NCBI GenBank assembly: GCA_964403795.1
Contig: CAYOHP010000008.1
Span: 16,987 to 80,986 of the forward strand
Reading direction: 5' to 3'
Origin: an uncultured bacterium
GTDB taxonomy: Bacteria > Muiribacteriota > UBA6191 > CAZXTJ01 > CAYOHP01
Length of the DNA: 64,000 bases
The first letter of the stretch is position 1. Each line of letters opens with the position of its first letter. Positions 1,754-28,846 of this stretch are shown one piece after another. The notes beneath the pieces are model-generated. The model ran no database searches. It was given only the letters and a program-made list of their open reading frames with translations, and was not told where the DNA came from. The translations under genes were made by a program, and so were the position numbers.

Positions 1754-2598
1754 GGGGAAGGTACCGCCAGGTCCATGCCGGGGCGCAGGCCGACCCCCGG
1801 CTTGGTGAGATCGGGATTGGCCTTCTGCAGGGCCTCCACGGTGACGCCGTACTGCTTGGCGAGACCGTACAGGCTCTCGCCCTGCTTCACCTTGTGGGTC
1901 CGTCCCGGAACCGGTGCCCCGGAAGCGCGGGCGATGGCCTCCCGGAGCTTCCGGTTCTCGGCGTCCACCGCCTCGAGCATGGCCTGGAGCCGGCCCTCGA
2001 AGGCGGTGCGATCCTTGTCCTGCTGCTGGCGGAGTCCCCCCAGCTCGGTGCGGATCGCGACCAGCGACTCGTTGAACCCGGTCGAGAGCGAGGTCATGTA
2101 GGCCCGGAGCTGGTTCAGATCGACGGCCAGCGCCTCCGCCTCCTGGCGATGGCGGGTGCGGTCCTGTTCCAGGGAGGCGGACAGGGCCTCGAGACGCTTC
2201 TCGACCCGGGACCGGAAGTCCTCGGCGGCCCGGTCGGACCCCTCCCGGTGGCGGGTCAGGCCGGTCTCGAGCTCGCTCCTCAGGAGCCCGATGCGTTCCT
2301 CCAGGTGGCGGGCATGCTCGACCCGCTCCTTCAGCGCCTCGGAGATCCGGTCCACCGCCTCGAGGGCGTCCTTGATCTTCTGGGCCGCCACCGCCTCCCG
2401 GCTCGCCAGCGCCAGTTCGAGGGCATCGAGGCGCTGCTTCTCCCGCGAATGGGCGAGGGCGGTCCCGGTGGCCGGTCCGGCGGCAGCCGCCAGGAGCAGG
2501 ACGAGGAGCCGGATTCCGGAGTGGCCTGGCGGGACGAACACCACCGGGACCGAGCCCCATGCCCCCCTCGAACCGGGTCGAGGCGGGGTCACCGGCAT
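1750..2598 (-). CDS. Secreted coiled-coil protein with a C-terminal LysM peptidoglycan-binding domain. It sits in the position of CpoB/YbgF downstream of pal.
   Basis: Signal-like N-terminus (IRLLVLLLAAAAGPATGTALA). The central part is a long heptad-like Ala/Glu/Arg/Leu region. The C-terminal LysM signature is HKVKQGESLYGLAKQYGVTVEALQKANPDL. The start overlaps the pal stop (TGATG). Confidence 0.7.
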   Translation of the reverse strand: MPVTPPRPGSRGAWGSVPVVFVPPGHSGIRLLVLLLAAAAGPATGTALAHSREKQRLDALELALASREAVAAQKIKDALEAVDRISEALKERVEHARHLEERIGLLRSELETGLTRHREGSDRAAEDFRSRVEKRLEALSASLEQDRTRHRQEAEALAVDLNQLRAYMTSLSTGFNESLVAIRTELGGLRQQQDKDRTAFEGRLQAMLEAVDAENRKLREAIARASGAPVPGRTHKVKQGESLYGLAKQYGVTVEALQKANPDLTKPGVGLRPGMDLAVPSP

Positions 2599-3254
2599 CA
2601 GGTGCCTCCCGGCGCGGTGCCGCTGGCGACCCGGAAGTGGGCCCTGCGATTCTGCTTCCAGACCTCTTCACCCCGGCCCGGGACCGCGGGTCGCTCCTCG
2701 CCGAAACTGACGGTGGCCAGCCGATCCGGAGCGATCCGCATGGCGGCCAGGAACTCGCGCACGGCCAGGGCCCGCTTCTCGCCCAGGACGAGGTTGTAGG
2801 CCGCGGTTCCCCGGGAATCGCAATGCCCCTCGATCACCAGCATGGCCCTGGGATTCGCCAGCATCCAGGCCCCGATCCCGGTGAGGACCTGGCGGGTCGC
2901 GGCCGAGAGCCCGTAGCTGTCGAACTCGAAGAACACGTCCCGGAGCACCGAGGCGTCACCGCCTCCCATGGGATCCAGGGACGGATCGTCGAGGGTAGGG
3001 TCCTCGCCGGAGGTCGACGCCGGCTCCCGGTAGCGCGAGTAATCGACCGGCGTCTCGCCGAGCGGGAGGTCGCCGCTCCGGATCCCGCCGCGTCCCTCGG
3101 AGCCCTCGGTGTCGAACACCGGAGCCGGGGTCGGGGAGGCCTCGGGAGGGCGCTGGCCCACCTGGGGGTCGGCGCGATCGCCGCGGCCTCCGCATCCGAG
3201 CGACACGATTCCGAGCAGGCACGCCAGGGCACGCGAGGTCGGGAACCTGTTCAT
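2598..3254 (-). CDS. pal: Peptidoglycan-associated lipoprotein Pal (OmpA-family C-terminal domain).
   Basis: Lipoprotein signal with lipobox (LGIVSLGCGG). The OmpA-like domain reads FEFDSYGLSAATRQVL...LVIEGHCDSRGTAAYNLVLGEKRALAVREFL...ERP. It lies immediately downstream of tolB. Confidence 0.9.
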   Translation of the reverse strand: MNRFPTSRALACLLGIVSLGCGGRGDRADPQVGQRPPEASPTPAPVFDTEGSEGRGGIRSGDLPLGETPVDYSRYREPASTSGEDPTLDDPSLDPMGGGDASVLRDVFFEFDSYGLSAATRQVLTGIGAWMLANPRAMLVIEGHCDSRGTAAYNLVLGEKRALAVREFLAAMRIAPDRLATVSFGEERPAVPGRGEEVWKQNRRAHFRVASGTAPGGT

Positions 3255-3283
3255 GGAGACCCTCTCCCGGCGGAAGCAGCCGA

Positions 3284-4573
3284 TCAATACGAGACCTTAC
3301 ACCAAGTCGGATCGCGCACGCCGGCGAGCGCCGGTAGGGGAATGGAGTAGCGATTGGAGGGTCGACGCGCATCCACGACCTCGAGCCGGGCCACGCCCTG
3401 TCGGGTCGAGGCGACGACCAGATGGCGATTGTCGGGAGCCCAGTCCAGCGCCTCTTCCCCCTCCGACCCGTCGGTCACCTCGAAGAAGGCGGAGTCCGCG
3501 AACCGGTGCACCCGGACCCCGAACCCGCGCGGCCCGCGGGCAGAGAAGGCGAGGAGGTCCCCGCGCGGCGACCAGGCCGGGTTGACGCACTCGTCGGAGG
3601 AGTCGAACCCGTGGGTCAGGCGCCGGGGAGGATCCCGGCCTTCGACCTCCAGCACGTACACCGCCGGAGAACCCGCCCTATCGCTCACGAACGCGATCCG
3701 CGACCCGTCGGGGGACCAGGTCGGGGAGAGATCGTTGGCCCGGTGCGAGGTCAGGCGCCGCCGCACCCTGCCGGTCAGGTCGAGGAGGTAGATCTCGGGA
3801 TTCCCCTCGTAGGAGAGCACCGCGGCCACCTGGGAGCCGTCGGGGGACATCGCCCCCAGGGTGTTCAGGCCGGCCCTGGCGCTCACGATCTGGTTCCGGC
3901 CGCTGACCGGGTCGAAGAGCATGAGCTGAGGGAAGTCCCGGGGATAGGCGGTGTAGAGGAGCCACCGGTGGTTCGGTGCGAACCGCGGGAAGAGGCACTC
4001 GAACGGCCCGGAGACGATGCGCTTCAGGTCGCTGCCGTCGGGGGCCGCGGTGTGGAGGGCGGGCTTGCCCTGGTGGTCGGCGACGAAGGCGAGCACCGTG
4101 CCCGCCAGCCCCGCTTCCCCGGTGAGTTCCCGCACCAGGTCGTCGGCGAAGCGATGGGCGGCCAGGGCCAGACGCCCACCCTCGAGCCGGTACTCGCGTC
4201 CGAACTGGCGGACACCATCGCTGGAATGCAGGTAGCCGCGCAGCAGGATGGCACCGGCATCGTCCCGGACCTCGGAACTCACCAGGAAGCTGGCGGCAGC
4301 CGGGACCTCGGAGGGAAGGACCCTGGCAGGATCGGCGGGAGGGGGACCCGCCAACGGGATCCGCTCGAACCAGTGCGACCGTTCGAGGTCGCCCGTGACC
4401 AGGGCGTCGAAGCGCACCGCCAGGGAGGGATCCCCGGCCGGGGGAGCGATCGCGAGCCGGATCGCCCGGTCGCCCGAGACCTCGATCACACCCCGCACCT
4501 CGGCCCCGCAGACGATCGGGAGGATCAGACCGAGGGCGATCGCCAGCCCCTGAACGCGGTCCTTACGCACCAT
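3284..4573 (-). CDS. tolB: Tol-Pal system periplasmic beta-propeller protein TolB.
   Basis: Signal peptide, TolB N-terminal domain, and repeated beta-propeller blades (SPDGSQVAAV, SPTWSPDGSRIAFVSDRAG, NPAWSPRGDLLAF). It is located between tolA and pal. Confidence 0.9.
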   Translation of the reverse strand: MVRKDRVQGLAIALGLILPIVCGAEVRGVIEVSGDRAIRLAIAPPAGDPSLAVRFDALVTGDLERSHWFERIPLAGPPPADPARVLPSEVPAAASFLVSSEVRDDAGAILLRGYLHSSDGVRQFGREYRLEGGRLALAAHRFADDLVRELTGEAGLAGTVLAFVADHQGKPALHTAAPDGSDLKRIVSGPFECLFPRFAPNHRWLLYTAYPRDFPQLMLFDPVSGRNQIVSARAGLNTLGAMSPDGSQVAAVLSYEGNPEIYLLDLTGRVRRRLTSHRANDLSPTWSPDGSRIAFVSDRAGSPAVYVLEVEGRDPPRRLTHGFDSSDECVNPAWSPRGDLLAFSARGPRGFGVRVHRFADSAFFEVTDGSEGEEALDWAPDNRHLVVASTRQGVARLEVVDARRPSNRYSIPLPALAGVRDPTWCKVSY

Positions 4574-4628
4574 GGTCCTCGCTTCCGGTCCAGGACGAGT
4601 CTCCCCGATGCCGGGCCCCGGTGCAAGG

Positions 4629-5738
4629 TCAGCGGACCACGAACACCAGGAAGAAGTCCTCGCCCGATTCGCCGCCGAGCTTCTCGGGGAGAGGACGGAA
4701 GGGAGCCGAGCGCTCCACTGCGGTGCGGGCCGAGCGGTCGAGACGATCGTCGCCCGAGGGCCGGGTCACCCGGAGATCCGAGAGCGAGCCGTCCCTCCCC
4801 AGCCGGAACCCCACCTCCACGGAGAGGTCGGCACCCAGAGCCGCTCGGGCCGGTCGTTGCCAGGCGGCGCCGAGCCGGGTGGTCAGCAGTTCCAGGTACC
4901 AGTGGACCGAAGGATCGAGCGCGCCCGCGACCCGCACCCCGAGTTCCTGGCCCGGGGCTTCCGGGCCGGGCCCGGTGGAGGTCGGTCTGGTGACGGCCGC
5001 AGGCGGGAGCGGGAGTGCCGCAGCGGTCGAAGTCTCGGCCGGAGGAGCGGCAGGGGTGGAGCTCCGGGTCGGAGCGGGCGGCGGGAGCGTCAGGGACCCG
5101 GGAGGCGGCGGCAGGGGGAGCAAGGGCTCGAGGGTGGGAGCCGGACGAGCCGGCGTCGAGGGCGTAGCGCCCGTCCAGCTCGGATCGCCCAGGAGTCGTT
5201 CCCGGAGCGAGGCACCGAAATCCGGGGGAGGCACCGGCTTGCGCACCGGGGCCGCTGCCGGGGTCGCCCGGGGCGCGGCCGCCGGCTTCGGTGTGGGCGC
5301 GGTCGGGCGGTTAGGGGCCTTGGAGGTCGGAACCGGGGCGGGCCGGGGGGCCTCCTTGGAAGCCGGGGGCGCAGGCGGGGCCGCCGGAGGGGCGGGAGGC
5401 GCGGCAGGCGGCACCGAAGCGGCCGGGGGCGGAGGTGCAGGCGGTGCGGGCGGAGCCGGAGGAGGTGCCGAAGGTGCGGCGGGAGGTGCCGGGGGAACCG
5501 GAGGGGCCACCGAAGGAACCGGCGGGGCGGGGCGGGAGACGGGAGGCGCGGGTCGGGCCGGGGTCACCGGCGGTCGAACGGTCGGAGCCGGCGGTGCGGG
5601 TCGCGGCAGCGCCCCGACGAAGCGGACCGGGATGGGCTTCGGCCTCTCGGTCACCGGGGGTGAGAGCCAGGTCGAGAGACCCATCGCCCCGAGGACCAGG
5701 GCATGGAGTCCCAGACTGAGGACCAGGCCTTCCCGCAA
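4629..5738 (-). CDS. tolA: TolA-like protein: N-terminal TM anchor, Pro/Ala-rich linker, and a TonB/TolA C-terminal domain.
   Basis: N-terminal TM (LVLSLGLHALVLGAMGL). The central linker is extremely Pro/Ala-rich. The C-terminal domain (VHWYLELLTTRLGAAWQRP...LSVEVGFRLGRDGSLSDLRVTRPSGDDRLDRSARTAVERSAPFRPLP) is TolA/TonB-like. It sits between tolR and tolB. Confidence 0.8.
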   Translation of the reverse strand: MREGLVLSLGLHALVLGAMGLSTWLSPPVTERPKPIPVRFVGALPRPAPPAPTVRPPVTPARPAPPVSRPAPPVPSVAPPVPPAPPAAPSAPPPAPPAPPAPPPPAASVPPAAPPAPPAAPPAPPASKEAPRPAPVPTSKAPNRPTAPTPKPAAAPRATPAAAPVRKPVPPPDFGASLRERLLGDPSWTGATPSTPARPAPTLEPLLPLPPPPGSLTLPPPAPTRSSTPAAPPAETSTAAALPLPPAAVTRPTSTGPGPEAPGQELGVRVAGALDPSVHWYLELLTTRLGAAWQRPARAALGADLSVEVGFRLGRDGSLSDLRVTRPSGDDRLDRSARTAVERSAPFRPLPEKLGGESGEDFFLVFVVR

Positions 5739-5740
5739 GG

Positions 5741-6154
5741 TCAGGGCTCCTTCGTGGCCAGCGCCAGGCGGGTCAGCCCGACCCGACGCAGCACGTCCAT
5801 CACCTCCACGACCCGGCCGTAGGCCAGGTCGCGGTCGGCGAGCAGGATCACGTCCGGTTCCGAGGCGCGACGGGCGATCAGTTCGCGGGCCCGCGCCTCG
5901 AGCTCGGAGAGGGTGGCGGGACGGCCCTCGAAGTGGACGTCCCCGGCCCGCGAGACCACCACGTTCACGGCGTCGTCGGTCCGGAGGTCCTTGGGGTCGG
6001 CGCCCGGGAGCTGGAGGGTGAAGCCCTGGTCGATCACGGGAGCGATCAGGATGAACACGATGAGCAACGTCATCATGACGTCGATCAGGTTGGTGAGGTT
6101 GATCTCGGCGATCGGGCGGCTGGGCCCGGACTCATCCCTGAGGAGCCTGCGCAT
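5741..6154 (-). CDS. tolR: Biopolymer transport protein TolR/ExbD.
   Basis: ExbD/TolR signature INLTNLIDVMMTLLIVFIL (single TM) with a periplasmic domain. It follows tolQ. Confidence 0.9.
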   Translation of the reverse strand: MRRLLRDESGPSRPIAEINLTNLIDVMMTLLIVFILIAPVIDQGFTLQLPGADPKDLRTDDAVNVVVSRAGDVHFEGRPATLSELEARARELIARRASEPDVILLADRDLAYGRVVEVMDVLRRVGLTRLALATKEP

Positions 6155-6172
6155 GGGGGACTCCCGCGCCGG

Positions 6173-6856
6173 TCAGGCGCGGCTCCCCTCGCCGGCCACG
6201 GCGGGTGCGCGGCTGGCCTCGACCGCACACAGGAAGTCCATGGCGAAGGACTTCATGCGGGTGACCGCCAGGCGGATCTGGCTCGAGACCAGGTTGTGGC
6301 CGACCAGGGCGGGAATGGCGACCGCCAGTCCCACGACCGTGGTCACCAACGCCACCGTGAGGCCGGGTGCCACCGCCTTCAGGCTGGTGGTCCCATGGAC
6401 GTTCATGTCGTGGAAGCAGAGCAGGATTCCCCAGACGGTCCCGAACAGCCCCAGCAGGGGGCTGACGGAAGCGATGGTCCCGAGCACCCAGAGACGCATC
6501 TCGAGTTCGAGGGCCTCGTGCTGGATCGCCATGGCCATGGAGTCCTCCACGTCCATCAGCTCCTTGGGACCGACCCGCCCCAAGGACTCGATCCGCCGGC
6601 AGCCTGCCGCATAGATCCGCCCCAGCGGACCCCGCGCCTCCTCGGAACCGGGCGGCCCCGGGTGCAGGGCCCGCGGCTCGGGAGTGGCGGCGAGCTGGGC
6701 CGAGAAGCGACGTCCGGCCACCGCGGCCCGGCGCAACCCGACGAGCTCGCCGAGCAGGATCGACCACGAGGCGATCGACATCGCCCCGAGGACCAGGAGC
6801 ACGACCTGCGAGAACGCGTCGCAGGCCAGGAAGGCCTTGGTGAGGATCGAGATCAT
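6173..6856 (-). CDS. tolQ: MotA/TolQ/ExbB proton-channel protein TolQ.
   Basis: Three-TM ExbB/TolQ architecture with the conserved C-terminal helices (VAPGLTVALVTTVVGLAVAIPALVGHN). It is the first gene of the tol-pal cluster. Confidence 0.9.
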   Translation of the reverse strand: MISILTKAFLACDAFSQVVLLVLGAMSIASWSILLGELVGLRRAAVAGRRFSAQLAATPEPRALHPGPPGSEEARGPLGRIYAAGCRRIESLGRVGPKELMDVEDSMAMAIQHEALELEMRLWVLGTIASVSPLLGLFGTVWGILLCFHDMNVHGTTSLKAVAPGLTVALVTTVVGLAVAIPALVGHNLVSSQIRLAVTRMKSFAMDFLCAVEASRAPAVAGEGSRA

Positions 6857-6875
6857 GGGTTCGGGGTGCCTCCCG

Positions 6876-8513
6876 TCAGAGCTGGAACATGGACGAGTAG
6901 TCGGCTCCGCCCCCGGCCATCGGGCCGCCGAGCGGGTCGTCGCCGAAGTCGAGGTCGCGGTCGCGGCCGCGGGTGGAAGCGGATCGCGCCGGGGCGCGGG
7001 TGGCGGCGGCCGGCGGGGATTCCGGGATCCCGGTGGACGCGACGGAGGGCGCGGGCGACGCGACCGGTGCCGTCCGGGCGGAGGGCGGAGGCATCGGCGG
7101 GAGCGGGCCGTCCGGCCCCGGTGCCGGGGTGCGGGCCGCGGCCGGCGGGGGTGGCGGCAGCGAGCCCGACGCCGGCCCCGGGGCGCCGGTGGCGGCGGCG
7201 ACCGAGGTGCCGAGGGCCGCGGCCCCCGAGGCCGCGGCGGATCCCGCTGCCCTGGTCGCGACCGCCGCCAGCTCGGCCGGGACGGTCAAGGGAGGCGCCG
7301 GCAGGGAGAGGCCGGGGACCGAGGCGGGAACCGGGTCCCACCGATCGTTCTTCCACCCGCCGCGCCGGGTCGGCCGGGAGGCGGCCGCCACCGGAGGGGA
7401 CGGAGGCGGCGGCGCGACCGGGACCCCCGAGGCGATCGGGGCGGCTTCGGGCCGACCCGAGGTCGGGGTCGTCGGGAGCGGCAGCGCCAGCGCGGGAGGA
7501 TCCTCGTCCCGGTGGTCGGGAGCCGAGGGGCTCTCCGGTCCGGGTGCGGGGCCGTACTGGCCCTTGGCGAGGTCGAGGAGGGTACCCACCGCCTCGCCCA
7601 CATCCTTGGTCTGGCTGGCGCCGCGCAGGCGCTTCCTCAGGTCGGCGGCCAGGCGCCGGGCGTCGGCGGGAGGCTGGGTGCGTCCCGGCTCGCGGCGGAG
7701 CCCGTCGGCACTGGTGGCAAGGGACTCGCCTTCCCGGAGCACACGCGTGTCCTGGCCGTACCGGGCGTCGACCCTGCCGGAGAACACCTCGATCTCCTCG
7801 GCGCCGCCGGGTACCGCCCGGATCCGCACCACCGCCGACCGCATCGCGAACTCCGCCCGGGGGGTCAGGATCTCGAAGCGCTGGCCTTCACGGCGCCAGT
7901 CGACGAGGACCTCGCCTGCCTCGAGGACCAGGGCGTCCCGCTGCAACTGGACCCGGGTCCCGGGCCCCACCGCGACCGCGGCCCGGGTGTCGAGCTCCAG
8001 CACGGTCCGGGCCGACTCCCCGGTCCTCAGCCAGTCATGGAACCAGAGGGCGTCGCTCCGACCCACCCGGGATGGCCCGCGAGCCCCGGAACGGACCACC
8101 TCGCCGGGGGCGTCGGACGAGAGCTTCGCCGCCACTCCCAGGTGGCGGGTGGCAGACGGAGCCCGGGTCCCGGCGTCGAGGGGTACCGCGAACTGGTACT
8201 CCCGGAAGGCGCCCGAGGCGACCCGCCGGGAAACCCCGGTCCGGGTGATCGCGTACTCGGAGCCCGGGAGCAGGCTGACCGCGCCCGAGTCGAACAGGGC
8301 CAGGTTCGCCCGGGTGCCTTCGGCCACCTGCAGGCGATCCCCGAGTTCGATCCGGGCGAAGTCGAGGACGTCCCGGGCGGTCCGACCCAGCGACGCCACC
8401 GACACCTTGCCCTCGAGGACCCGGAGGCTCCCGGCCATGGGAGCGGCCAGCAGACCGGCTCCCGGGAGCAGCGCCGGGAGGATCGCGAGCAGGGGGACGC
8501 GGCGGGGGTTCAT
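6876..8513 (-). CDS. Secreted FecR-domain protein with a long Pro/Ala-rich C-terminal region.
   Basis: Signal peptide (LLAILPALLPGAGLLAAP). The N-terminal ~250 aa have the FecR-like beta-rich pattern (GKVSV...GDRLQVAEGTRANLALFDSGAVSLLPGSEYAI). The ATG at 8511-8513 overlaps the stop of the upstream CHASE2 gene (ATGA). Confidence 0.6.
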   Translation of the reverse strand: MNPRRVPLLAILPALLPGAGLLAAPMAGSLRVLEGKVSVASLGRTARDVLDFARIELGDRLQVAEGTRANLALFDSGAVSLLPGSEYAITRTGVSRRVASGAFREYQFAVPLDAGTRAPSATRHLGVAAKLSSDAPGEVVRSGARGPSRVGRSDALWFHDWLRTGESARTVLELDTRAAVAVGPGTRVQLQRDALVLEAGEVLVDWRREGQRFEILTPRAEFAMRSAVVRIRAVPGGAEEIEVFSGRVDARYGQDTRVLREGESLATSADGLRREPGRTQPPADARRLAADLRKRLRGASQTKDVGEAVGTLLDLAKGQYGPAPGPESPSAPDHRDEDPPALALPLPTTPTSGRPEAAPIASGVPVAPPPPSPPVAAASRPTRRGGWKNDRWDPVPASVPGLSLPAPPLTVPAELAAVATRAAGSAAASGAAALGTSVAAATGAPGPASGSLPPPPPAAARTPAPGPDGPLPPMPPPSARTAPVASPAPSVASTGIPESPPAAATRAPARSASTRGRDRDLDFGDDPLGGPMAGGGADYSSMFQL

Positions 8514-9661
8514 GCAGCCAGCCTCTCGGTTCCACGGTCCATGGCGGCCCTCCCGGCGACGCCACCGAGCCGGGTGGGCGGGGAGAAGGACGCTCCCAGG
8601 CGCACCGGATCGGTCGCCGACGCCAGGACCGGCGAGGTCATCCCGGCCCGCCGCAGGGCGGCGACCAGGGGACCGAGGAAGGCGCCGAGCAGCAGGGCCA
8701 GGGTCGGACCCCAGGGATCGATCAGCAGATCGGCCCAGACCAGCAGGAGCAGGCTGGCCAGCGAAGGACTCGCGACCCCCGCCAGGAGGACCGGGAGGGC
8801 CGCCCCGCCGAGACCGGGAAGCAGGACTCCCAGCAGGGCGAAGCCGGCTTCGATCCCCAGGACCAGGCCGGGCAGGGGGGGAAGCTCCAGCACCCGTCGC
8901 CCGGCGAGGAGCTGGGCCGTGGCCTGGGCGTGGAGGGACCGGGAGCCGCCCGGCTCGACCAGCACGATCCGGCCCGCCAGGGAGGAATCGGGACGCTCCA
9001 GGCGACGGCCCAGGCGGGCCCTGGGATCCCCGGAGGCGAGTTCCTCGTCGGAGAGGCCGAAGGCCCGGGCCTCCGAGGGCGGGATCGCCTCGGGGTCGTC
9101 GAGCCGGGCCTCCAGGCGCTGGTACTGGAGAGCCTCGCCCAGGACCTCGACGAAGGGACGCACCTCGATCGCCCCGAGGGCATCGACCGAGAAATCGAGC
9201 GGGGACCGGGGCCAGCCGCGGACCGGTCCGCCCATGGCCTCCACGGCTCGACGAGCCGGCGAGGCGCGGTCGAAGGGATAGCGGACCAGGGCTTCGCCCT
9301 CCCCGGGAGCCAGGGTCTCCGAGGGCTCGGCCACCACCACCGAGGCCGCTCCGGCGGCCTCCAGGTAGTCGACCACCGAACCCATCAGTCCGGGAGGCCA
9401 GGCATCCCTGGGTCCCAGTTGATCCTCAGTGGTCAGATCGGACCCGATCTCCACGACCAGCAGCCGGTCGAGCCCGCCGGCGGGGCCATGCCACCAGGAG
9501 CGGGCATCGAAGGCTACCCGGCCCGCGCCCTGGGCGAGGAAGCCGGGTGCCGGGACCCGCTGGGCAGCGGCCACCGCGGCCGCCACGGCCACGCCCAGGG
9601 CCAGAGCCCCGGGGCGGCCCGGTTCGGACCGGATTCGATCACGGGAAGGGTTTCTCGTCAC
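8510..9661 (-). CDS. CHASE2 sensor-domain membrane protein with no cytoplasmic output domain.
   Basis: N-terminal TM is followed by CHASE2 hallmark stretches (DRLLVVEIGSDLTTEDQLGPRDAWPPGLMGSVVDYLEAAGAASVVV). The C-terminus carries three TM helices. Proposed GTG start at 9659-9661. The 5' part of the 488-aa ORF looks like GC-frame noise. Confidence 0.55.
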   Translation of the reverse strand: MTRNPSRDRIRSEPGRPGALALGVAVAAAVAAAQRVPAPGFLAQGAGRVAFDARSWWHGPAGGLDRLLVVEIGSDLTTEDQLGPRDAWPPGLMGSVVDYLEAAGAASVVVAEPSETLAPGEGEALVRYPFDRASPARRAVEAMGGPVRGWPRSPLDFSVDALGAIEVRPFVEVLGEALQYQRLEARLDDPEAIPPSEARAFGLSDEELASGDPRARLGRRLERPDSSLAGRIVLVEPGGSRSLHAQATAQLLAGRRVLELPPLPGLVLGIEAGFALLGVLLPGLGGAALPVLLAGVASPSLASLLLLVWADLLIDPWGPTLALLLGAFLGPLVAALRRAGMTSPVLASATDPVRLGASFSPPTRLGGVAGRAAMDRGTERLAA

Positions 9662-9780
9662 CTCCCTTGGAACATCGGCAGACAAGGACGGACGTCGAAG
9701 CGCACCGACCCGGCACCCCGGGGAGGGCTCGCGGTCGCGGCACCGGGAACCGCACCCGGGGGCGCGGCTCCCGGCCTTCC

Positions 9781-11028
9781 TCAGTCGGTCCCTCCCAGGG
9801 TCGACCGGGACCCCTGGCTCTCGAGGAAGCGCACCACGTCGTCGAAGTGGCGGGACTCGATCCCGCCGGTGCGCACCCGGTGCTGGTCCCGGAACCCTCC
9901 GCCGTCGAAGATCCACAGCTCCCGCTGGCGGAGGCCCCAGGACGAGACCACCTGGAGGTGGCGGTAGTCGCCCCACCAGACCAGGGGCACGTACTTCATC
10001 ATCGCCATGCGCAGCGCGGTGTGGGAGCGGTCCGAGAAGCGGCCGCCCGAAGGCGATTCGGTGGCCAGGATGGCGGCGTTCAGGTTGGCCTTGGCCCTCA
10101 GCATGGCGAGCGCGAACCGGACCGAGGTGGGCTTGACCAGGGTGTCGAAGATCGAGGTCGTGGTGTAGCGGTACAGGATCCAGCCTGTGAGGCTACGGCG
10201 CTCCTCGTCGGGGTTGGCGGGCTTGATGCGCTCGCGCTCCAGGATCTGCCGGGCCTCGGCGGCGTCGGCCAGGGCGGCGTCGAGACCCGCCAGGTAGCGG
10301 TCGGAGAGCGGCTCGGCGACCGAGACCGACAGGTGGGTGCCGCGTCGGACACCGGACGAGGTGGGAAGGCCGACAGGGCGCGCCTCCCATCTCGAGGTGA
10401 GGAGCGGGCGCGACTGCGAGTCCCTCCAATGGGGGCCGTTGTAGAACATGCTGCGGGCCCCGGCCCAGCCGTGGAGCTGGTCGTGGAGGGTGGCGAGCCG
10501 CACCGATTCGAGTCGGGCCTCGAGGGCCCAGGCGGGCTCGTCGCGGGCCTCCATGGTGGCGAGGGTGCGGTGGGCGGCCTGGAGCTTGCCGTTGGCCGCC
10601 AGGATCGCGGCCGAGAGGTCGTCCGCCAGCCGGACCGCCCGGTTGTAGCGGGCCAGGTCGGAGAAGCCGAGCTTGTTCCGGCCCGAGTCCGACTGGTACT
10701 CGGCGGCCCGGTAGATCTCGGCGTAGAGATCCATGGCGGAGACCAGCTGCCGGTCGGCTTCGGCGAGGTCGGCGACGACTCCGTCCCAGTGGGGGGACAC
10801 GGGATGGGCCCCGGCGTGCAGGGGGAAGCCGCCTCGCCCGTCGCCGGTCCCGGTTCCGGTGCCTGCGGCTCCTGCCGCGCCCGGGGGCAGGGCCACAGGA
10901 GTCCGGCCATCGCCGGTTCCGGAGGCCAGGTCTTCGAAGCCGAGCTGGGCGGGACACGGGGGGGGGAGGGAGAGCAGGAGTGCCAACAGGAGCGAGGAAG
11001 AAGGGATCGAGGGTCGCATCGTTTCCAT
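9781..11028 (-). CDS. Hypothetical secreted protein (signal peptide, no recognised domain). It is the first gene of the CHASE2/FecR/tol-pal gene string.
   Basis: METMRPSIPSSSLLLALLLSLPPPCPAQ is a signal peptide. It is followed by ~390 aa of non-repetitive sequence with good coding-like composition. Confidence 0.5.
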   Translation of the reverse strand: METMRPSIPSSSLLLALLLSLPPPCPAQLGFEDLASGTGDGRTPVALPPGAAGAAGTGTGTGDGRGGFPLHAGAHPVSPHWDGVVADLAEADRQLVSAMDLYAEIYRAAEYQSDSGRNKLGFSDLARYNRAVRLADDLSAAILAANGKLQAAHRTLATMEARDEPAWALEARLESVRLATLHDQLHGWAGARSMFYNGPHWRDSQSRPLLTSRWEARPVGLPTSSGVRRGTHLSVSVAEPLSDRYLAGLDAALADAAEARQILERERIKPANPDEERRSLTGWILYRYTTTSIFDTLVKPTSVRFALAMLRAKANLNAAILATESPSGGRFSDRSHTALRMAMMKYVPLVWWGDYRHLQVVSSWGLRQRELWIFDGGGFRDQHRVRTGGIESRHFDDVVRFLESQGSRSTLGGTD

Positions 11029-15500: not shown

Positions 15501-15543
15501 TCCCGGATCCAGGATCCGGGGCCCGACCCCGGGAGAGGCGAGA

Positions 15544-16425: not shown

Positions 16426-16438
16426 TGGGGAACGAGCC

Positions 16439-21935: not shown

Positions 21936-24224
21936 TCAACCGCCGATCAGGTAGATCCGCGCCAACCGCCCCAGGGCGATGGCCGCGATCGCGAACACCA
22001 GCATCTGGAAATAGCCGATCGCCACCTGCGCCGGGGTGAGCGCCTGGGTGGTGCGGGTGGCCGCGGTCGTCTTCCCGGATCCCCCGGGCGGCGAGGTAGC
22101 GGGGGCCGAGCGGGGACCGGTGCCGGGCGAGGGCTCGAAGTAGGTGGAGCGCTCCACCGCCAGCTGCTGGTCCTCGCCTGAGACCTGGCGGGCTCCCTCC
22201 AGGGCCAGCGCCGCCTCCTCCTCGGAGAGCATGGCGCTGCCACCGAGCTTGGGTTGGGGCAGGGCGGTGGAGGCCCGGATCCGATCGCCGCCGTAGGCCT
22301 CCTTGTTCCGGTTTCGCCCGCTGGCCGCAAGGGGGGGCATGAGCCCCGCCGCCTCCTGCGCCTTGCCGGCGATCTCGGCCGAGGTCTCGGTCCGGCTCTC
22401 GGACCGGCCACCGCCCCCCACCGCGGCCTGCTTCGAGCTCGCCTCCCGGAACGCCTCGCCCAGTGCCTTGGCGAGCGGCTCGAGCAGGCTCGCCTCGGTG
22501 GCCATCACGGCGGTCTCGGCGACCACCCGGGCGACCTGGGCGGCAGCCAGGAAGGACTCCTCGTCCCGACCTCCCACCAGTACCCCGAGCTCGGTCAGGT
22601 CGGTGTCGCCCAGGATCCAGCGCCGCAGCGCCCCGTAGGCACGGACCCCGGCGTCCCGGCTCTTCCCCAGTCGCTCGGCTTCCGGCGACCGCAACAGGGC
22701 CGTCGCCAGCGCCCGGGCCGCGGCGCGGGCCGCCGGCCCTCCCAGCTCGACCGCTCCCTCCAGGGCCCCGGCCGCCGACGCAGCCTCGGGTCCGAGCTGG
22801 CCGAGGCTGTCGGCGAGCACCACCCGGGTCTCGACGTCCTGGGACTTCTGGAGCGCCTTGCCGAGCACCCCGGCGCACCCCCTCCGGGCACTGGGATGGA
22901 CCCCCGACAGGAACCAGGCAGCCGTCCGGCACGCCACCGGATCGTCCAGTTCGAGGAGCTTCGAGAGGTAGGCGGCCGCCTGGGGATCGTCGGTCGCCCG
23001 TCGTCCCAAGGCCCGGATGGCCTGGATCCGCATGGCGCCCGGGGACGCCTTGGAGACCACGGTGGCGAGGATGGCCGAGGACTGCGGGTAGTCCATGTAG
23101 GCCAGGCAGTGGATCCCCTGGAGCAGCTCCTGGGGATTGCCGGAGGCCAGCAGGTCCTTGACCCGACGCACCGCCCGGCGGGGGTCGAGCAGCGTGGTCG
23201 CCAGGGCCACGTTCATCGCCAGCTTGGGATGGCGGGTGTCGAGCAGGGCCAGGACCTTCTCGGAATACTGCTCCGGCGGGACCGGGAGCTTGACCAGGGT
23301 CTCGACCGCGGCGGCCTGCACCACCGGGTTCGAAGTGGCCAGCGCCTCCATCGCCATCTCGAAGCCCTGGCGTTCGCCGGCGGCGGCCACGGCCTGCAGG
23401 CAGGCCACCCGCGCCAGCGGATGGTCGAGCCCGCGGAACACCGAGCCGATCCGGCGGGTGAGCTCGGCGCCCCCGAGCCGCCCCATGGTCTCCACGCTCT
23501 GGATCACGGTCCAGGGATCCCGGGACTCGAGCAGGCGGGTCAGGACCTTCTGGTAGTCGTAATCCCCGAAGCCCTCCATGGCGTAGGCGATCCAGGGCCG
23601 GACCTTTTCCTCCCGGTCGACCAGGCCGGAGAGGTACTCGAAGGCCGGACGGCTGGGAACTCCGCGGAACGCCTGGACCAGACCCGAGAAGACCGGGGTG
23701 CCGGAGCGCTTGGTGGCCAGGTCCATGGCCCGGCCGGCCGCCTCGTCGCCCCCGAAGACCGCATAGGCCGCCATGCACAGCGGTGCCATGGCCCCGGGTC
23801 CCGAGACCTCCTGGATGGCCTCCAGGCTGGCCGGGATCCGGATCCTCCCCAGCACCCGGAGCGCCGCCACCGAACGGCGTCCCCCGGCCCGGGCCTGGTT
23901 CTGGAGGGGCGGTACCAGGGTCGCCAGGCTGGAGGCCGCGGCCTGCTCGACGTCGCCGCCATCGACCTTGACGCGGGTGGCGCCGGCGTCGGCATGCCCG
24001 AGGAAGCGGGTCCAGTTGCCGGCCTCCCGGGGCGGATCGCCCCCGGCCCGGAGCAGCCCGTCCTCCAGGCGGCGGCTCCAGAACACGTCCTCGGCCAGCC
24101 GGGCGGAGTCGGCGACCTCCCCGGACTCGGCGGCCTCCAGCAGGTCGAGGGCCACCGCACTGTCGACGGTGATGGGCTGGCGCTCCAGCCTCCGGAGCAG
24201 GAAGGCCTTCGCCATGGTCCCCTG
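21936..24224 (-). CDS. HEAT/PBS-lyase-type repeat protein with a C-terminal TM anchor.
   Basis: Many degenerate alpha-helical repeats of the form D/NPxVRxxAaxaLgxig. The C-terminal hydrophobic segment reads IGYFQMLVFAIAAIALG. ATG proposed at 24222-24224; the ORF track's TTG at 24263 is also possible. Confidence 0.55.
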   Translation of the reverse strand, partial: QGTMAKAFLLRRLERQPITVDSAVALDLLEAAESGEVADSARLAEDVFWSRRLEDGLLRAGGDPPREAGNWTRFLGHADAGATRVKVDGGDVEQAAASSLATLVPPLQNQARAGGRRSVAALRVLGRIRIPASLEAIQEVSGPGAMAPLCMAAYAVFGGDEAAGRAMDLATKRSGTPVFSGLVQAFRGVPSRPAFEYLSGLVDREEKVRPWIAYAMEGFGDYDYQKVLTRLLESRDPWTVIQSVETMGRLGGAELTRRIGSVFRGLDHPLARVACLQAVAAAGERQGFEMAMEALATSNPVVQAAAVETLVKLPVPPEQYSEKVLALLDTRHPKLAMNVALATTLLDPRRAVRRVKDLLASGNPQELLQGIHCLAYMDYPQSSAILATVVSKASPGAMRIQAIRALGRRATDDPQAAAYLSKLLELDDPVACRTAAWFLSGVHPSARRGCAGVLGKALQKSQDVETRVVLADSLGQLGPEAASAAGALEGAVELGGPAARAAARALATALLRSPEAERLGKSRDAGVRAYGALRRWILGDTDLTELGVLVGGRDEESFLAAAQVARVVAETAVMATEASLLEPLAKALGEAFREASSKQAAVGGGGRSESRTETSAEIAGKAQEAAGLMPPLAASGRNRNKEAYGGDRIRASTALPQPKLGGSAMLSEEEAALALEGARQVSGEDQQLAVERSTYFEPSPGTGPRSAPATSPPGGSGKTTAATRTTQALTPAQVAIGYFQMLVFAIAAIALGRLARIYLIGG

Positions 24225-24287
24225 GGAGCCGTAGGACCAGAGGATCTCGTCGAGCTGGCGCAACCCCTTGCCTCCCCTGGCGTTCGC

Positions 24288-24728
24288 CTACTTGAAGAGC
24301 GACTTGAGGAGCGACAGGCCCTTGCCGCCCGCCTTCTCCTTCGCCTGTTCCTTCTTGACCTTGTCCTCTGCCTTGTTACCGAGCCAGTTGCTCAGGAGGC
24401 CGCCCCCGATGGACTTGGCCTGGAGCCCGCCGAGCTCCTTGTCCCGGTGGTGGCGTCGGGTCGCCTCGAGCTTGTGGACTCCCGGTTCGGAACCCTTGGC
24501 GAGGCTGGCGAAGCCTCCGAAGGGTCTGCCCACGGCCAGGCTCCGGGAGAGCCGGACCCGCTCCCCGTCGCTCCACACCATGAGCTTCGATCCCTTCGAG
24601 ACCACCATGCCGGCCTCGGGCAACGGGACGAGCTCGTCGGCCGCCCGGACCGCGTGGCCGAGGAGACCGGCAGAGAGCGCCAGCACCAGGATCCTCCCGG
24701 TCCAGCCGGGGACTCCGATGACGACCAT
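24288..24728 (-). CDS. Small secreted hypothetical protein with a Lys-rich C-terminus.
   Basis: Signal peptide (RILVLALSAGLLGHAVRA). 146 aa. It lies between the FecR-domain gene and the HEAT-repeat gene on the same strand. Confidence 0.45.
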   Translation of the reverse strand: MVVIGVPGWTGRILVLALSAGLLGHAVRAADELVPLPEAGMVVSKGSKLMVWSDGERVRLSRSLAVGRPFGGFASLAKGSEPGVHKLEATRRHHRDKELGGLQAKSIGGGLLSNWLGNKAEDKVKKEQAKEKAGGKGLSLLKSLFK

Positions 24729-24740
24729 CAGGCCACCTCC

Positions 24741-25907
24741 TCAGGGATTGTCGATGGACAGGACCTTCACGTCACCCTCGAGCACGTCGACGGTGGGCAT
24801 GCGCCCGGCGCCGGCCATCTCGAGGGTGGCCATGGTGACCCCGCCCCTGCGGGTGAAGTCGACCACCTTCAGGTCGTCCCCGTTGGTCCGCGCCATGAAC
24901 ACCGCCACGTCGTGCCGGGGACCGTGTCGCAGCGGCTGGAAGGTGGGATCGGCCCGGTGGAAGGTCATCTTCCCCTTGCGCAGCCGGCCCATCAGGGCGT
25001 TGCCCATGCGATAGAAGCTGAACTCGGTCCCGGACTCGAAGCGCAGCCAGCCGGTGTGCCGGAGGTGGAGGATGGCGTAGCCGGTGCCCACGGTCAGCAC
25101 CAGCGGGTTCTGCCAGTCGCGCCCCGGGGCATCCCAGTCGATCTCCTTGTTCCACCAGGTGGCGTCGACCAGGGCCCCGTCCAGCAGGACCTGCCCCGCG
25201 GTCGCCTCGGCGACGTGGAACTCCCGGTTGTACTTGGCGTTGACGTGGTCCTGGTTCTCGTAGAGGAACTGCTGGGCGGCCCGGGCCATCATGGCGTAGC
25301 GGAAGACCCGGATGGCATCCACCGCCAGCTCTTGGTTGGAGGTCACCAGTCCGAGCAGGGCCCCGCCGTAGGCCAGGCCGTTCAGGATGCCCCGGGTCAC
25401 CCCCAGGAAGGTCCGCTTCTTGCGATGGTCGTACTCGACCGCGAACTCGGTGCCCCGCACCCCGGCCACGACGGTGGGAGCCCGGACGTTGAAGGGGCTC
25501 GCCTCGTGCTCCGCGGGGGGCCGCCGGGTGACCTGGCAGACGACCTTGCCCAGGCTCTCGGAGAACATCCCGACCCAGCTCGTCTGGTCCTGGTTCTCGG
25601 GGATGTCGGGGATCTCGAGCATGGTGTTCTCGGAGACCGCGACCGAATCCTGGCCGCCTTCCTTGTTGTAGAACACCACCTCGCAACTCGACCCGGGACC
25701 GGTCCGCACCCGGTCCCCCATCTGCACCGGCACCTCGCCGGCCAGCGGTCCCTTCCACCGGTTGAAGGCCGCGGCGTAGATCTCGACTTTGCCCCTGGGC
25801 TTGGTGATCCGCCCCCGCGCCGTGCCCTGGGCGATCGCCTGGGGAACCGCAGCCACCGTCAACCAGACCGCAGCGAGCGCCAACCCGACGATGCCAGAGG
25901 TCTTCAC
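24741..25907 (-). CDS. Secreted FecR-domain protein, the partner of the CHASE2 cyclase.
   Basis: Signal peptide (GIVGLALAAVWLTVAAVPQAIAQG), then a FecR-like region (GRITKPRGKVEIYAAAFNRWKGPLAGEVPVQMGDRVRTGPGSSCEVVF). The GTG start at 25905-25907 overlaps the cyclase gene stop (GTGA). The 5' 350 codons of ORF 24741..26957 are noise. Confidence 0.6.
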   Translation of the reverse strand: MKTSGIVGLALAAVWLTVAAVPQAIAQGTARGRITKPRGKVEIYAAAFNRWKGPLAGEVPVQMGDRVRTGPGSSCEVVFYNKEGGQDSVAVSENTMLEIPDIPENQDQTSWVGMFSESLGKVVCQVTRRPPAEHEASPFNVRAPTVVAGVRGTEFAVEYDHRKKRTFLGVTRGILNGLAYGGALLGLVTSNQELAVDAIRVFRYAMMARAAQQFLYENQDHVNAKYNREFHVAEATAGQVLLDGALVDATWWNKEIDWDAPGRDWQNPLVLTVGTGYAILHLRHTGWLRFESGTEFSFYRMGNALMGRLRKGKMTFHRADPTFQPLRHGPRHDVAVFMARTNGDDLKVVDFTRRGGVTMATLEMAGAGRMPTVDVLEGDVKVLSIDNP

Positions 25908-28846
25908 TTGTGCTCCATGGTCCACACGCCGTCCCAGTCCCCCCGGGGAGGATGTTCCCTGAGCAGCGTAATCCGCTCCAGGTAGCGCATGGAAGGCGCA
26001 TCGCCGGGCCGGACCTCGAGCACCCGCCCGAATCCCGCCTCGGCCTCGTCCCAGGCCTGGGCCCGGTAGGCGGAGAGGGCCGCCTCCCAGGGCGAGAGCA
26101 GGCCGTCGTGGTTCCCCTCGCCCTTCTCGGCCAGCACCTCGAAGACGCTCGCCGGGATCGTCTTGCCCTTGACCCGGACCCGGTCGAGCTCCCGCATCAC
26201 CAGCTCGGCACCGGCGACCCGGGCGGTGTTCTCCCCGATCATCAGGTAGGTCCCGTACTCCTTGTTCAGCGCCTCGAGGCGGGCCGCCAGGTTCACCGCG
26301 TCCCCCAGCACCGTGTAGTTCTTCTTCCGCTCGGTGCCGACGTTCCCGACCACCACCGAGCCGGTGTTGATGCCGATCCTGGTCTTGACCTCGGGAAGGT
26401 CGCGGGCCCTCCACACCTTGCGGAGCGCCTCCTCGCGGGCCTTGAGCTCCAGGGCCGCCAGGCAGCAGCGCACCGCGTGGTCCGGCTGGTGGCGGGGGGC
26501 GTTGAAGACGCAGACGATGGCGTCCCCGATGAACTTGTCGACCCAGCCGCCGTAGCGCATCAGCACATCCGACATGGCGGTCAGGTACTCGTTCATGAAC
26601 ACCACAAGCTCGGGCGGGGTCATCTTCTCGGAGAATCCGGAGAAGCCCTCGATGTCCGAGAAGTAGCAGGAGACGTCGCGCTGGGTCCCCCCCAGGGCCA
26701 CCGCCGCCGGGCTCGCCTCCAGCTCCGAGACGATGTCGGGATCGAGGTAGTGCTGGAACATGGCCCGGATCTCCCGGCGCTTCCGCTCCACGGTGGCGTA
26801 GTTCCAGGAGAGCAGCGCCAGGCAGGTCCCGGCGAGCGCGATCACGGGCAGACCGACGTGGACCCATCGCCCTGCCACCAGCAGCCGGTACCCGATCTCG
26901 TAGCCGGCGGCGACCAGGGCCAGGACCAGCCCGAGGTGGCGCACCCTCTGGAACCACAGGGCGGTGGCGACGCAGAGCACCACCAGCCAGGGGAGCAACG
27001 AGAGCTGCCCGGAAGCCCGCTCCCGGAAATCGGGCGCTCCCATCTCGAGGAGGCCGGTGGGCGCCTCCCGGAGGGAGCCGGAGATCAAGGTATGGACCGC
27101 GTGCCCATGCACCTCGACCCCCGGGGTCCGGTTCCGGCCGCGGCGGGCGGTGGCGGAGAAGAAGCCCGCCTGGTCGAAGGGGGTTCGATGGAAGTCCTGG
27201 GACAGCTCGGTGACGTCCCCTACCAGCACGATGGCGTCCTGGAAGATGGTGGCCGTCTCCACCTCGAGGTGGCCGCGGTGCCCGGTGCGGGGATCCTCGA
27301 CCAGCACGGTCCTGCGACCCGCGGCGGTGTCGGGCAGCGGCCCGGGCCGAGGCGCGTAGGGGGGTGCCGGGAGGGTACGGTCCACCGCCAGCAGCGCCAG
27401 GGGCCCTTCCCCTCCTTCCACCCGGATCGCGGGAGGCTCGCGACGGGACCCGGCCCGCCGCGGTGCCCGGGCCGCCACCACGATCTCGTCGGAAAGCACC
27501 GGGACGGGATCGCCCCCCGCCTCGACCAGGACGTCCTCGCTGGCCAGGGGCGGGGTCTGGAACCCGCCGTCCGGTCCGGTGGCCACCTCGACCCGCTCCC
27601 GGTAGACCAGGTCGGCCAGGTAGCGGTCGCCCTCGAAGACCACGGCGCGATCGGCCAGGGCGACGTCGAGCCGACCGCGGATCACGCGGCTGGGCGACGG
27701 GAGCTCCACCGACACCTCACCGGCCGTGGCGGCCACATTGCTGCGGGTCGCCACCCCGAAGGCCCTCGGCCCCAGGGTGCGTCCCACCCACAACGCGTAG
27801 GGACCTGGCGACAACCCGGAGAGGACGACCTTGCCGCGTCCCCGCGCCGAGGCCCACACGCCGTCCCCCTCGGGGAGCGCGAGCACGTCGAGGTCTTCGT
27901 CGGCCGGGGCCAGGACCACCGTCAGCGAGTGGGGACCGGGCGGAGCCAGCACCGCGCGGGTCGGGTGGATCCGGCCGGACTCGAGCAGGAGTTCCTGGCC
28001 GCCCGAGCCGGCCTCCTCGTTGAGCAGGTCGGCCACCGAGACCGTGGGGATGGTCCCGCCCGGTCCCAGGAACGAGATCGGGTAGCGGCCGAAGCGGTCG
28101 ACCTCGAGCTCCCGCCCCCAGGGCAAGGTCACCCGCCCGGTGGCGAAGGCTGCTTCCGCCGGCGACCCGGGAGGAGGTGCCGAGGGTCCCCGCAGGACCA
28201 GGTCGGCGAGCTGGAGATCGAGCGAGGCGAGGGTCTGCATCCCGGGCGTCATCAGCCAGGAGGAGCCGTAACGGAGGCAGCCGTCCCGATCCTGGAAGGT
28301 GTTGACGTGGCCCACCCGGGCGACCTCGGAGAGCTCGGGCAGCGGCAGCACCAGGTCGATCCTGGAACTGGTCCCGAACGACCCGCCCACCACGCCCCGC
28401 TCTCGCTCCGCCGCCAACACCGTGTCGCGCCGGAGCGAAAGGACCCGGATCAACTCGTCGGTCCCGGGCCGCGGCATGTCCATCACCACGTCGAACCCGA
28501 TCGCCTTGGCGCCACGCTCCCGGAGCCTCTCCACGATCCGGGCATAGACTTCGCGGCTCCACGAGCCGGGCGCGAAGCCCCATCGTTTCTGGACCAGGCG
28601 ATTGGCCTCGTCATCGATCCCGAGGACGACCACGCGGGGATCGCCGGGCCGGCGGGGGATCACCCCCCGACGTTGGATCCAGGAACGTTCGAGGGCCAAC
28701 TCGAGGTCGAGGAACGGCGCCGGGAAGACCACCGCTGCCAGCCAGGTCGCGAACGCGACCAGGGTCCCCGCGACCACGGCGATGGCGGCCCGCTCCTCGC
28801 GGGGGGCGGAAAGCGACGCGGCCTCTCCGCCGGACGAGACGCTCAT
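25904..28846 (-). CDS. CHASE2-sensor adenylate/guanylate cyclase (class III nucleotidyl cyclase), with a large insertion in the periplasmic part.
   Basis: N-terminal TM plus CHASE2 hallmark (PRVVVLGIDDEANRL...REVYARIVERLRERGAKAIGFDVVMD). About 450 aa of extra periplasmic sequence follows, then TM helices. The C-terminal CYCc domain reads SCYFSDIEGFSGFSEKM...FIGDAIVCVF...IGINTGSVVVGNVGTERKKNYTVLGDAVNLAARLEA. ATG at 28844-28846. Confidence 0.8.
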   Translation of the reverse strand: MSVSSGGEAASLSAPREERAAIAVVAGTLVAFATWLAAVVFPAPFLDLELALERSWIQRRGVIPRRPGDPRVVVLGIDDEANRLVQKRWGFAPGSWSREVYARIVERLRERGAKAIGFDVVMDMPRPGTDELIRVLSLRRDTVLAAERERGVVGGSFGTSSRIDLVLPLPELSEVARVGHVNTFQDRDGCLRYGSSWLMTPGMQTLASLDLQLADLVLRGPSAPPPGSPAEAAFATGRVTLPWGRELEVDRFGRYPISFLGPGGTIPTVSVADLLNEEAGSGGQELLLESGRIHPTRAVLAPPGPHSLTVVLAPADEDLDVLALPEGDGVWASARGRGKVVLSGLSPGPYALWVGRTLGPRAFGVATRSNVAATAGEVSVELPSPSRVIRGRLDVALADRAVVFEGDRYLADLVYRERVEVATGPDGGFQTPPLASEDVLVEAGGDPVPVLSDEIVVAARAPRRAGSRREPPAIRVEGGEGPLALLAVDRTLPAPPYAPRPGPLPDTAAGRRTVLVEDPRTGHRGHLEVETATIFQDAIVLVGDVTELSQDFHRTPFDQAGFFSATARRGRNRTPGVEVHGHAVHTLISGSLREAPTGLLEMGAPDFRERASGQLSLLPWLVVLCVATALWFQRVRHLGLVLALVAAGYEIGYRLLVAGRWVHVGLPVIALAGTCLALLSWNYATVERKRREIRAMFQHYLDPDIVSELEASPAAVALGGTQRDVSCYFSDIEGFSGFSEKMTPPELVVFMNEYLTAMSDVLMRYGGWVDKFIGDAIVCVFNAPRHQPDHAVRCCLAALELKAREEALRKVWRARDLPEVKTRIGINTGSVVVGNVGTERKKNYTVLGDAVNLAARLEALNKEYGTYLMIGENTARVAGAELVMRELDRVRVKGKTIPASVFEVLAEKGEGNHDGLLSPWEAALSAYRAQAWDEAEAGFGRVLEVRPGDAPSMRYLERITLLREHPPRGDWDGVWTMEHK

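Follow-up and report, generated by a model that had tools for sequence, protein, structure and literature searches.

The region analyzed here is a window of 64,000 nucleotides from an uncultured bacterium of the Muiribacteriota (GenBank assembly GCA_964403795.1, contig CAYOHP010000008.1, positions 16,987 to 80,986 of the forward strand), and the system under study is a pair of genes encoding a receptor-type class III nucleotidyl cyclase with a CHASE2 sensor domain and a secreted protein with a FecR domain, referred to below as the partner. The G+C content of the window is about 72% and most of the long open reading frames in it are spurious, real genes being told apart from spurious ones by their codon-position G+C. 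The segment 24741..28846 was found to consist of exactly two genes, both on the minus strand (Table 1), and an independent gene call in the public assembly of the same sequence gave identical products of 980 and 388 amino acids (aa). The stop of the cyclase gene and the start of the partner gene share four nucleotides, GTGA (...cac aaG TGA aga...). Such an overlap is the commonest type of operon junction and is unremarkable alone. The partner gene is predicted to be translationally coupled to the cyclase gene, which suggests a joint production of both proteins. The coordinates, gene order, 4-nt overlap and domain assignments (CHASE2, cyclase and FecR) given for this segment in a preliminary description of the DNA were all reproduced by the gene calls and by Pfam.

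The cyclase is built, in this order, of a first transmembrane (TM) helix, a periplasmic CHASE2 domain carrying an insert, three further TM helices, the catalytic domain and a helical tail. This arrangement of one TM helix, an extracytoplasmic domain, three TM helices and a cytoplasmic output was observed both by hydropathy and in an AlphaFold2 (AF2) model with a mean predicted local distance difference test (pLDDT) score of 78, which was built from the homologues labelled P only, without the orthologues of the locus. Therefore, residues 49-610 should lie outside the cytoplasm and the catalytic domain inside. The protein matched the Pfam family CHASE2 (PF05226) with 118.1 bits (cut-off 26.3) in two stretches split by the insert, the best of them covering residues 37-279 and profile positions 6-181 of 257. 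Residues G543, D551, T555, G576 and V577, in the C-terminal part of CHASE2, occupy invariant columns. The class III cyclase output proposed in the preliminary description is real, with a Guanylate_cyc match of 86.5 bits over residues 723-896 and all of the residues expected of the class, which are conserved: two aspartates for metal binding (D731 and D775), the pair that specifies the substrate (K771 and T845), and N852 and R856 for the transition state. When aligned to solved structures, the K...T pair was found as in CyaB of Pseudomonas aeruginosa, unlike the E...G of the guanylate cyclase Cya2, and adenylate cyclase activity of class IIIb (Lys/Thr type) is therefore predicted for the catalytic domain. 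Fold searches with the entire cyclase chain were dominated by cyclase and GGDEF matches and were uninformative on the insert and the CHASE2 core, and a word-indexed homology search with the periplasmic region alone returned the cyclase itself as the sole match.

The insert was measured in 13 sampled CHASE2 proteins as the number of residues between the CHASE2 anchors ‘PGGTIPTVS’ and ‘IVLVG’. The spacing was 31–35 residues in nine of the 13, including CyaK of Sinorhizobium meliloti (35), 48 residues in L069, 177–179 residues in P0003 and P0007, where the segment is helical, and 284 residues in the window cyclase. As judged from these sequences, the loop that bears the insert tolerates the insertion of whole domains. 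An inserted extra domain in the sensor had been proposed earlier and is present, but it comprises about 250 aa (residues 279-530) and not about 450, and the range indicated at that time (residues 330-780) extends into the TM helices and the catalytic domain. It contains two beta modules followed by a Pro-rich segment (residues 446-530). When 1.84 billion representative proteins were searched exhaustively with HMMER, only three relatives of the insert were detected, all of them in cyclases of 972–1027 aa. The inserts of the orthologues are similar in length and 21–32% identical, close to the 25–37% of the N-terminal part of CHASE2; the catalytic domains of the closer orthologues share about 70% identity. 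No Pfam family matched the insert of the window cyclase. Only module 1 of the L005 orthologue matched CarboxypepD_reg (PF13620), with 23.8 bits and E = 5.9e-5, below the cut-off of 32.3. An hhalign comparison of the insert with a protein containing several CarboxypepD_reg domains was not significant (E = 0.37, on the ‘G.l.l.gL.pG.Y.v.V’ motif only), and hmmsearch of the insert profile against the sequences of the Protein Data Bank (PDB) gave nothing significant, the best E being 0.66. We regard module 1 as a prealbumin- or immunoglobulin-like sandwich of uncertain family, possibly CarboxypepD_reg-like. Additionally, in another lineage (P0003, 949 aa; P0007, 971 aa; locus L031), the same CHASE2 loop holds an insert that is unrelated, apparently helical and about 145 aa long.

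The partner matched the Pfam family FecR (PF04773) with 35.4 bits (cut-off 24). It has no lipobox cysteine and no hydrophobic segment besides its signal peptide. Ten homologues of 370–388 aa were found, with 33–58% identity, and the protein is better conserved than the sensor region of the cyclase. The most conserved stretch, with many invariant residues, spans residues ~102-166 (window 25416-25600) and includes ENxxxTSWVGMFS...FNVRTPTVVAGVRGTxF. The AF2 model (mean pLDDT 69.7) is composed of an N-terminal beta domain, a three-helix linker (172-226) and a confidently predicted C-terminal beta-sandwich. No sequence similarity that would indicate an internal repeat was detected between the N- and C-terminal domains, and the partner family had no match among the PDB sequences. 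The periplasmic domains of the anti-sigma regulators FecR and PupR have a related fold. The possibility that the partner itself is a FecR anti-sigma factor was rejected: it lacks both a cytoplasmic anti-sigma domain and a membrane anchor, only a signal peptide precedes its FecR domain, and the operon contains no extracytoplasmic function (ECF) sigma factor or TonB-dependent transducer. The genes around that of the partner encode the cyclase, LpxL and two further proteins, one small and one with HEAT repeats.

The last two genes of the cluster, one for a small secreted Lys/Arg-rich protein, with no match in Pfam or NCBIfam, and one for a HEAT-repeat protein, follow the partner gene. The contigs carrying seven partner homologues were examined for synteny. 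The full order was found in the metagenome contigs L001, L004, L025 and L026, with a cyclase of 972–1027 aa, a FecR protein of 370–385 aa, a small protein of 128–140 aa and a HEAT protein of 700–791 aa; contigs L002, L003, L028 and L029 end early, and the parts reached keep the same order. The most divergent locus, L005, encodes a cyclase of 1136 aa, a FecR protein and a protein of 268 aa, and then no HEAT gene. The FecR gene adjoins the cyclase gene in every orthologous contig with a visible junction, and the 4-nt overlap between them is kept in most of the related loci but absent in L004 and L005. In all related contigs long enough to include it (L001-L005, L025-L029), the small protein keeps its place in the cluster, and these proteins align with one another, sharing a signal peptide and a Lys/Arg-rich C-terminus. 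A C-terminal hydrophobic TM anchor was present in all six HEAT orthologues examined. A scan for promoters and terminators between 21.4 and 29.4 kb found nothing, as expected at 72% G+C. With regard to the neighborhood, lpxL and kdkA-waaA adjoin the cluster in the window, and kdsB/A/C lie 5–10 kb off. The regions 14349-17020 and 28883-31875 contain a divergent LpxL-like acyltransferase gene, a KdkA-WaaA fusion, kdsB, kdsA and kdsC. In L005, kdsA, kdsC and kdsB (5770-7971, all three above the NCBIfam cut-offs) are immediately adjacent to the cluster. The cyclase cluster is thus found beside genes for lipid A and 3-deoxy-D-manno-octulosonic acid (Kdo) in two differently arranged lineages, and there may be a link to lipopolysaccharide (LPS) or the envelope.

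Gene pairs of this type have been described in other bacteria. The CHASE2 cyclases CyaK, CyaD1 and CyaD2 of S. meliloti need the outer-membrane protein NsrA for signal perception (PMC7529298, PMC13001267). The nsrA gene is located on pSymB directly upstream of cyaK, which it overlaps. In NsrA, Pfam placed a FecR domain at the N-terminus (residues 66-160, 57.2 bits), ahead of tetratricopeptide (TPR) repeats. When the partner family was compared with the NsrA N-terminus by hhalign, a probability of 77% was obtained (E = 2e-5, 218 columns). Like the window pair, NsrA-CyaK consists of a gene for a CHASE2 and class III cyclase protein that overlaps the gene for a secreted FecR-domain protein. However, the partner gene lies upstream of the cyclase gene in S. 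meliloti and downstream in the window, NsrA is a protein of 1200 aa in which TPR repeats are combined with an outer-membrane beta-barrel, whereas the window partner has 388 aa and a C-terminal beta-sandwich in their place, and the CHASE2 loop of CyaK is canonical, without an insert. Moreover, no small basic or HEAT protein is annotated alongside nsrA-cyaK, while the window cluster has both. Since Pfam gave no TPR match in the partner, and its model shows a helical linker and then a beta-sandwich with no outer-membrane barrel, the partner is not an NsrA orthologue, but a relative through the FecR module only.

Operons described from Burkholderia and P. aeruginosa combine the genes for a LysM-FecR protein and a CHASE2 kinase (PMC5192318). 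These operons, Burkholderia ‘BiofilmReg’ and the P. aeruginosa PA4035/PA4036 type (COG4254), resemble the window in that a secreted FecR protein is encoded beside a CHASE2 receptor in one operon (PMC5192318), but their output is a histidine kinase and response regulator, the partner carries LysM and CHASE2 has no insert. The window partner had no Pfam match to LysM, the domain of the COG4254/PA4035 type. Campylobacterota have a gene cluster that includes a CHASE2 adenylate cyclase and a FecR-domain protein, which the authors proposed to belong to one pathway (PMC9239204). The FecR partner was described there as an outer-membrane protein (PMC9239204), and the accessory genes encode a phosphodiesterase and a TPR protein instead of the small basic and HEAT proteins of the window. 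By contrast, the output of FecI-FecR-FecA and PupI-PupR-PupB is the release of a sigma factor, whereas the output predicted for the window is cyclic AMP (cAMP) and its partner lacks an anti-sigma domain and a membrane anchor.

The association of the two domains was also counted in other loci. In all seven annotated plasmid or chromid loci (nsrA-cyaK included), the CHASE2 gene was found to have a FecR gene as its immediate neighbor on the same strand. In the other six of these loci (6/6), this neighbor bears the annotation ‘FecR domain-containing’ or ‘FecR family’ and lies directly upstream. In two of those six, from Variovorax and Paraburkholderia, the CHASE2 genes lie beside response-regulator genes, in a histidine-kinase-type operon such as those of PMC5192318. 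Among distant metagenomic CHASE2 cyclases, the FecR gene was immediately upstream in three of four. When the loci were chosen by their FecR genes, an adjacent CHASE2 gene was detected in only 2/18 genome loci (metagenome-assembled genomes (MAGs) of Armatimonadia and Halothermotrichaceae, both confirmed by Pfam) and in only 2/29 metagenome loci. Therefore, the link runs from CHASE2 to FecR and not in reverse. The adjacency of CHASE2 and FecR is far above chance, regardless of the output domain and of the gene order. The proposal of FecR proteins as CHASE2 partners in the preliminary description thus agrees with a recurrent adjacency (7/7 and 3/4 loci), although the idea had already been published for NsrA (PMC7529298, PMC13001267).

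The same description had pointed out a similarly ordered pair of genes about 16 kb away and had regarded both loci as paralogous modules. This pair, referred to here as the first pair, is present with the same gene order and a 4-nt overlap (ATGA), and its downstream protein matched Pfam FecR with 27.3 bits (cut-off 24). The upstream protein, which had been taken for a CHASE2 protein, reached 13.6 bits (E = 0.051) against a cut-off of 26.3, and 0.4 bits in an hmmsearch with our own CHASE2 profile. Most of the invariant CHASE2 residues are missing from it, its agreement with the domain is limited to the topology and two short motif matches, and no relatives were found in a metagenome scan. When the pairs were compared with each other, tblastn gave nothing at E <= 1, hhalign gave probabilities of 20% for the upstream proteins (on the ‘IVLV...HA’ motif) and 9.5% for the FecR proteins, and hmmsearch gave 0.4 and 4.7 bits. 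The paralogy is thus not borne out by any mutual similarity; in the comparison of FecR domains that had been suggested, the window partner was nearer to the NsrA N-terminus than to the first-pair protein. The first pair, with its FecR-domain gene, heads a Tol-Pal cluster (window 1750-9976, minus strand). At most, the two window pairs share an ancient architecture.

With a probability of about 0.6, we interpret the locus as a conserved operon for envelope-to-cAMP signalling that belongs to the CHASE2/FecR type. By analogy with NsrA-CyaK of S. meliloti, the FecR-domain protein would be a periplasmic co-sensor or relay, capturing or transmitting an envelope cue, and would contact the CHASE2 domain. 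This contact would rearrange the TM helices and alter the catalytic activity of the dimeric cytoplasmic domains, so that cAMP would be raised or lowered. The insert would probably provide an extra docking or ligand surface on the cyclase. The FecR domain may be the common module that faces CHASE2, with the input specificity set by accessory parts such as the C-terminal sandwich in the window, TPR and beta-barrel in NsrA, LysM in Burkholderia and cadherin-like repeats in L030. Several observations weigh against this interpretation. The product of smc02177, a FecR-domain gene of S. meliloti located beside cyaD1, is dispensable for the perception of the plant signal (PMC5498481), and therefore adjacency does not always mean co-sensing. 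No FecR gene lies within 6 kb of one sampled CHASE2 cyclase, P0007, and an ‘obligate’ partner, as had been suggested, is thus not supported. The partner lacks the TPR repeats and the outer-membrane barrel of NsrA, and its most conserved stretch, residues 102-166, is also the worst modelled (pLDDT 25–47); it may be ordered only upon binding. Finally, none of the window genes scanned was Crp-like.

The partner might instead act mainly as an inhibitor, in an anti-sigma-like manner, the CHASE2 cyclase being held off until a cue removes or remodels it. The relationship of its fold to the periplasmic domains of FecR and PupR would fit this mode of action, as would the constitutive cAMP production of pCyaD1-deltaCHASE2, which implies that the sensor module restrains the enzyme (PMC5498481). 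However, the loss of NsrA in S. meliloti abolishes signalling and does not lead to constitutive activity (PMC7529298); the sign of the regulation is not decided by sequence, and this alternative seems rather unlikely to us. We also find it unlikely, and slightly more so, that the FecR protein is tied to CHASE2 only by co-regulation, as an envelope effector expressed along with it or as a component acting downstream in the cAMP pathway, and is not a sensing partner. The smc02177 gene offers a precedent, being itself a target of Clr/cAMP that is needed for infection control and not for signal perception (PMC5498481), and most FecR-domain genes have no CHASE2 neighbor, as the counts from FecR-seeded loci indicate. 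Against a role as effector only, the translational coupling suggests a joint production of cyclase and partner, the adjacency persists across phyla and with both cyclase and histidine kinase outputs, and NsrA, which bears a FecR domain, acts genetically upstream of the cyclases (PMC7529298).

A more specific proposal is that the four genes form a dedicated sensor of the status of the outer membrane or LPS, in which the FecR and small proteins would report defects of the envelope or LPS to the insert and the HEAT protein would be a cytoplasmic scaffold or cAMP effector. It is based on the lipid A and Kdo genes beside the cluster in two lineages and on the other FecR pair heading the tol-pal operon, and we regard it as quite improbable. 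The origin of the two window loci by duplication of one CHASE2-FecR module is very doubtful. The gene order and the overlap are the same, both downstream proteins pass the Pfam FecR cut-off, and the upstream protein of the first pair has CHASE2 topology with two weak matches in the right order; but tblastn found no match, the profile comparisons are at noise level, and the CHASE2 match of the first pair is below threshold, with most of the invariant residues and the output domain missing. Moreover, the first pair is embedded in a Tol-Pal operon, and the window partner is closer to NsrA than to the FecR protein of that pair. The reading of the long periplasmic region as an ordinary CHASE2 domain plus disordered linkers, with no real inserted domain, has been largely refuted and is barely tenable. 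It could draw on the low confidence of the Pro-rich segment (pLDDT 30–60) and on the lack of a Pfam family on the insert, but residues 293-381 were modelled with confidence as an eight-stranded sandwich, residues 390-445 form a second beta module, and the length and sequence of the insert are kept in the orthologues (phmmer E = 1e-19 to 2e-14).

The locus is thus a lineage-specific variant of a documented sensor-partner system, set apart by a CHASE2 domain with a beta-sandwich insert, by a partner that is compact and soluble, and by two more genes conserved along with the pair. In other respects it is an ordinary member of a documented gene neighborhood. To our knowledge, genetic data on what CHASE2 domains sense, and how, exist only for the S. 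meliloti system. The adjacent FecR gene in nearly all of the CHASE2 loci sampled, together with the FecR domain in NsrA, leads to the hypothesis that the FecR module is a general adaptor facing CHASE2. A soluble partner of 388 aa, without barrel or TPR, may be better suited than NsrA for binding and structural work.

Table 1. Coordinates of the genes and protein features in the window (aa, amino acids; TM, transmembrane).
Feature	Coordinates	Strand	Size, basis or remark
Receptor-type class III cyclase (predicted adenylate cyclase)	28846..25904	minus	980 aa, ATG start
N-terminal TM helix, residues 19-48	28703..28792	minus	hydropathy; model helix 16-40
CHASE2 N-terminal part, residues 49-278	28013..28702	minus	alpha/beta in model
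Lineage-specific insert, ~250 aa, residues 279-530	27257..28012	minus	anchor spacing, orthologue sharing
Insert module 1, eight-stranded beta-sandwich, residues 293-381	27704..27970	minus	pLDDT 85-91, all-beta
Insert module 2, smaller beta domain, residues 390-445	27512..27679	minus	pLDDT 65-84
CHASE2 C-terminal part, residues 531-610	27017..27256	minus	VG...D...TP...PGVE...H motifs
Three TM helices, residues 611-682	26801..27016	minus	hydropathy; model helices 617-635, 638-657, 665-697
Class III nucleotidyl cyclase catalytic domain, residues 719-907	26126..26692	minus	
C-terminal three-helix tail, residues 914-964	25955..26107	minus	conserved in CHASE2 cyclases
Secreted FecR-domain partner	25907..24741	minus	388 aa, GTG start
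Sec-type signal peptide, ~residues 1-26	25830..25907	minus	A-I-A motif; hydropathy and sequence
FecR domain, residues 65-164	25416..25715	minus	Pfam; motif FNVRTPTVVAGVRGTxF, the family's most conserved
C-terminal beta-sandwich, residues 230-388	24744..25220	minus	specific to this orthologue group
Small secreted Lys/Arg-rich protein, third cluster gene	24288..24728	minus	146 aa
HEAT-repeat protein with C-terminal TM anchor, fourth cluster gene	21936..24263	minus	775 aa; Pfam HEAT_2 69.6 bits
First pair, upstream gene, degenerate CHASE2-like membrane protein, no output domain	8510..9976	minus	1 + 3 TM helices; true start uncertain
First pair, downstream gene, secreted FecR-domain protein	6876..8513	minus	545 aa, Pro/Ala-rich tail
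TolQ/ExbB	6856..6173	minus	
TolR/ExbD	6172..5741	minus	
TolA/TonB-like	5738..4629	minus	
TolB (PD40)	4765..3284	minus	
Pal (OmpA family)	3296..2598	minus	
LysM protein	2667..1750	minus	

Additionally, two other arrangements of FecR genes with cyclase genes were observed. In alphaproteobacteria (L032, L033, L035 and L036), a triad was often found that is composed of a Crp/Fnr-family regulator, a short FecR protein (~170–205 aa) and a CHASE2 cyclase, that is, a sensor, its partner and a cAMP receptor in one locus. In MAGs of Turneriella (L017, L018, L020 and L022), FecR-domain genes lie beside class III cyclases without CHASE2, the cyclase of L017 being a fusion with a receiver domain; FecR proteins may be associated with cyclases more broadly than with the CHASE2 types.

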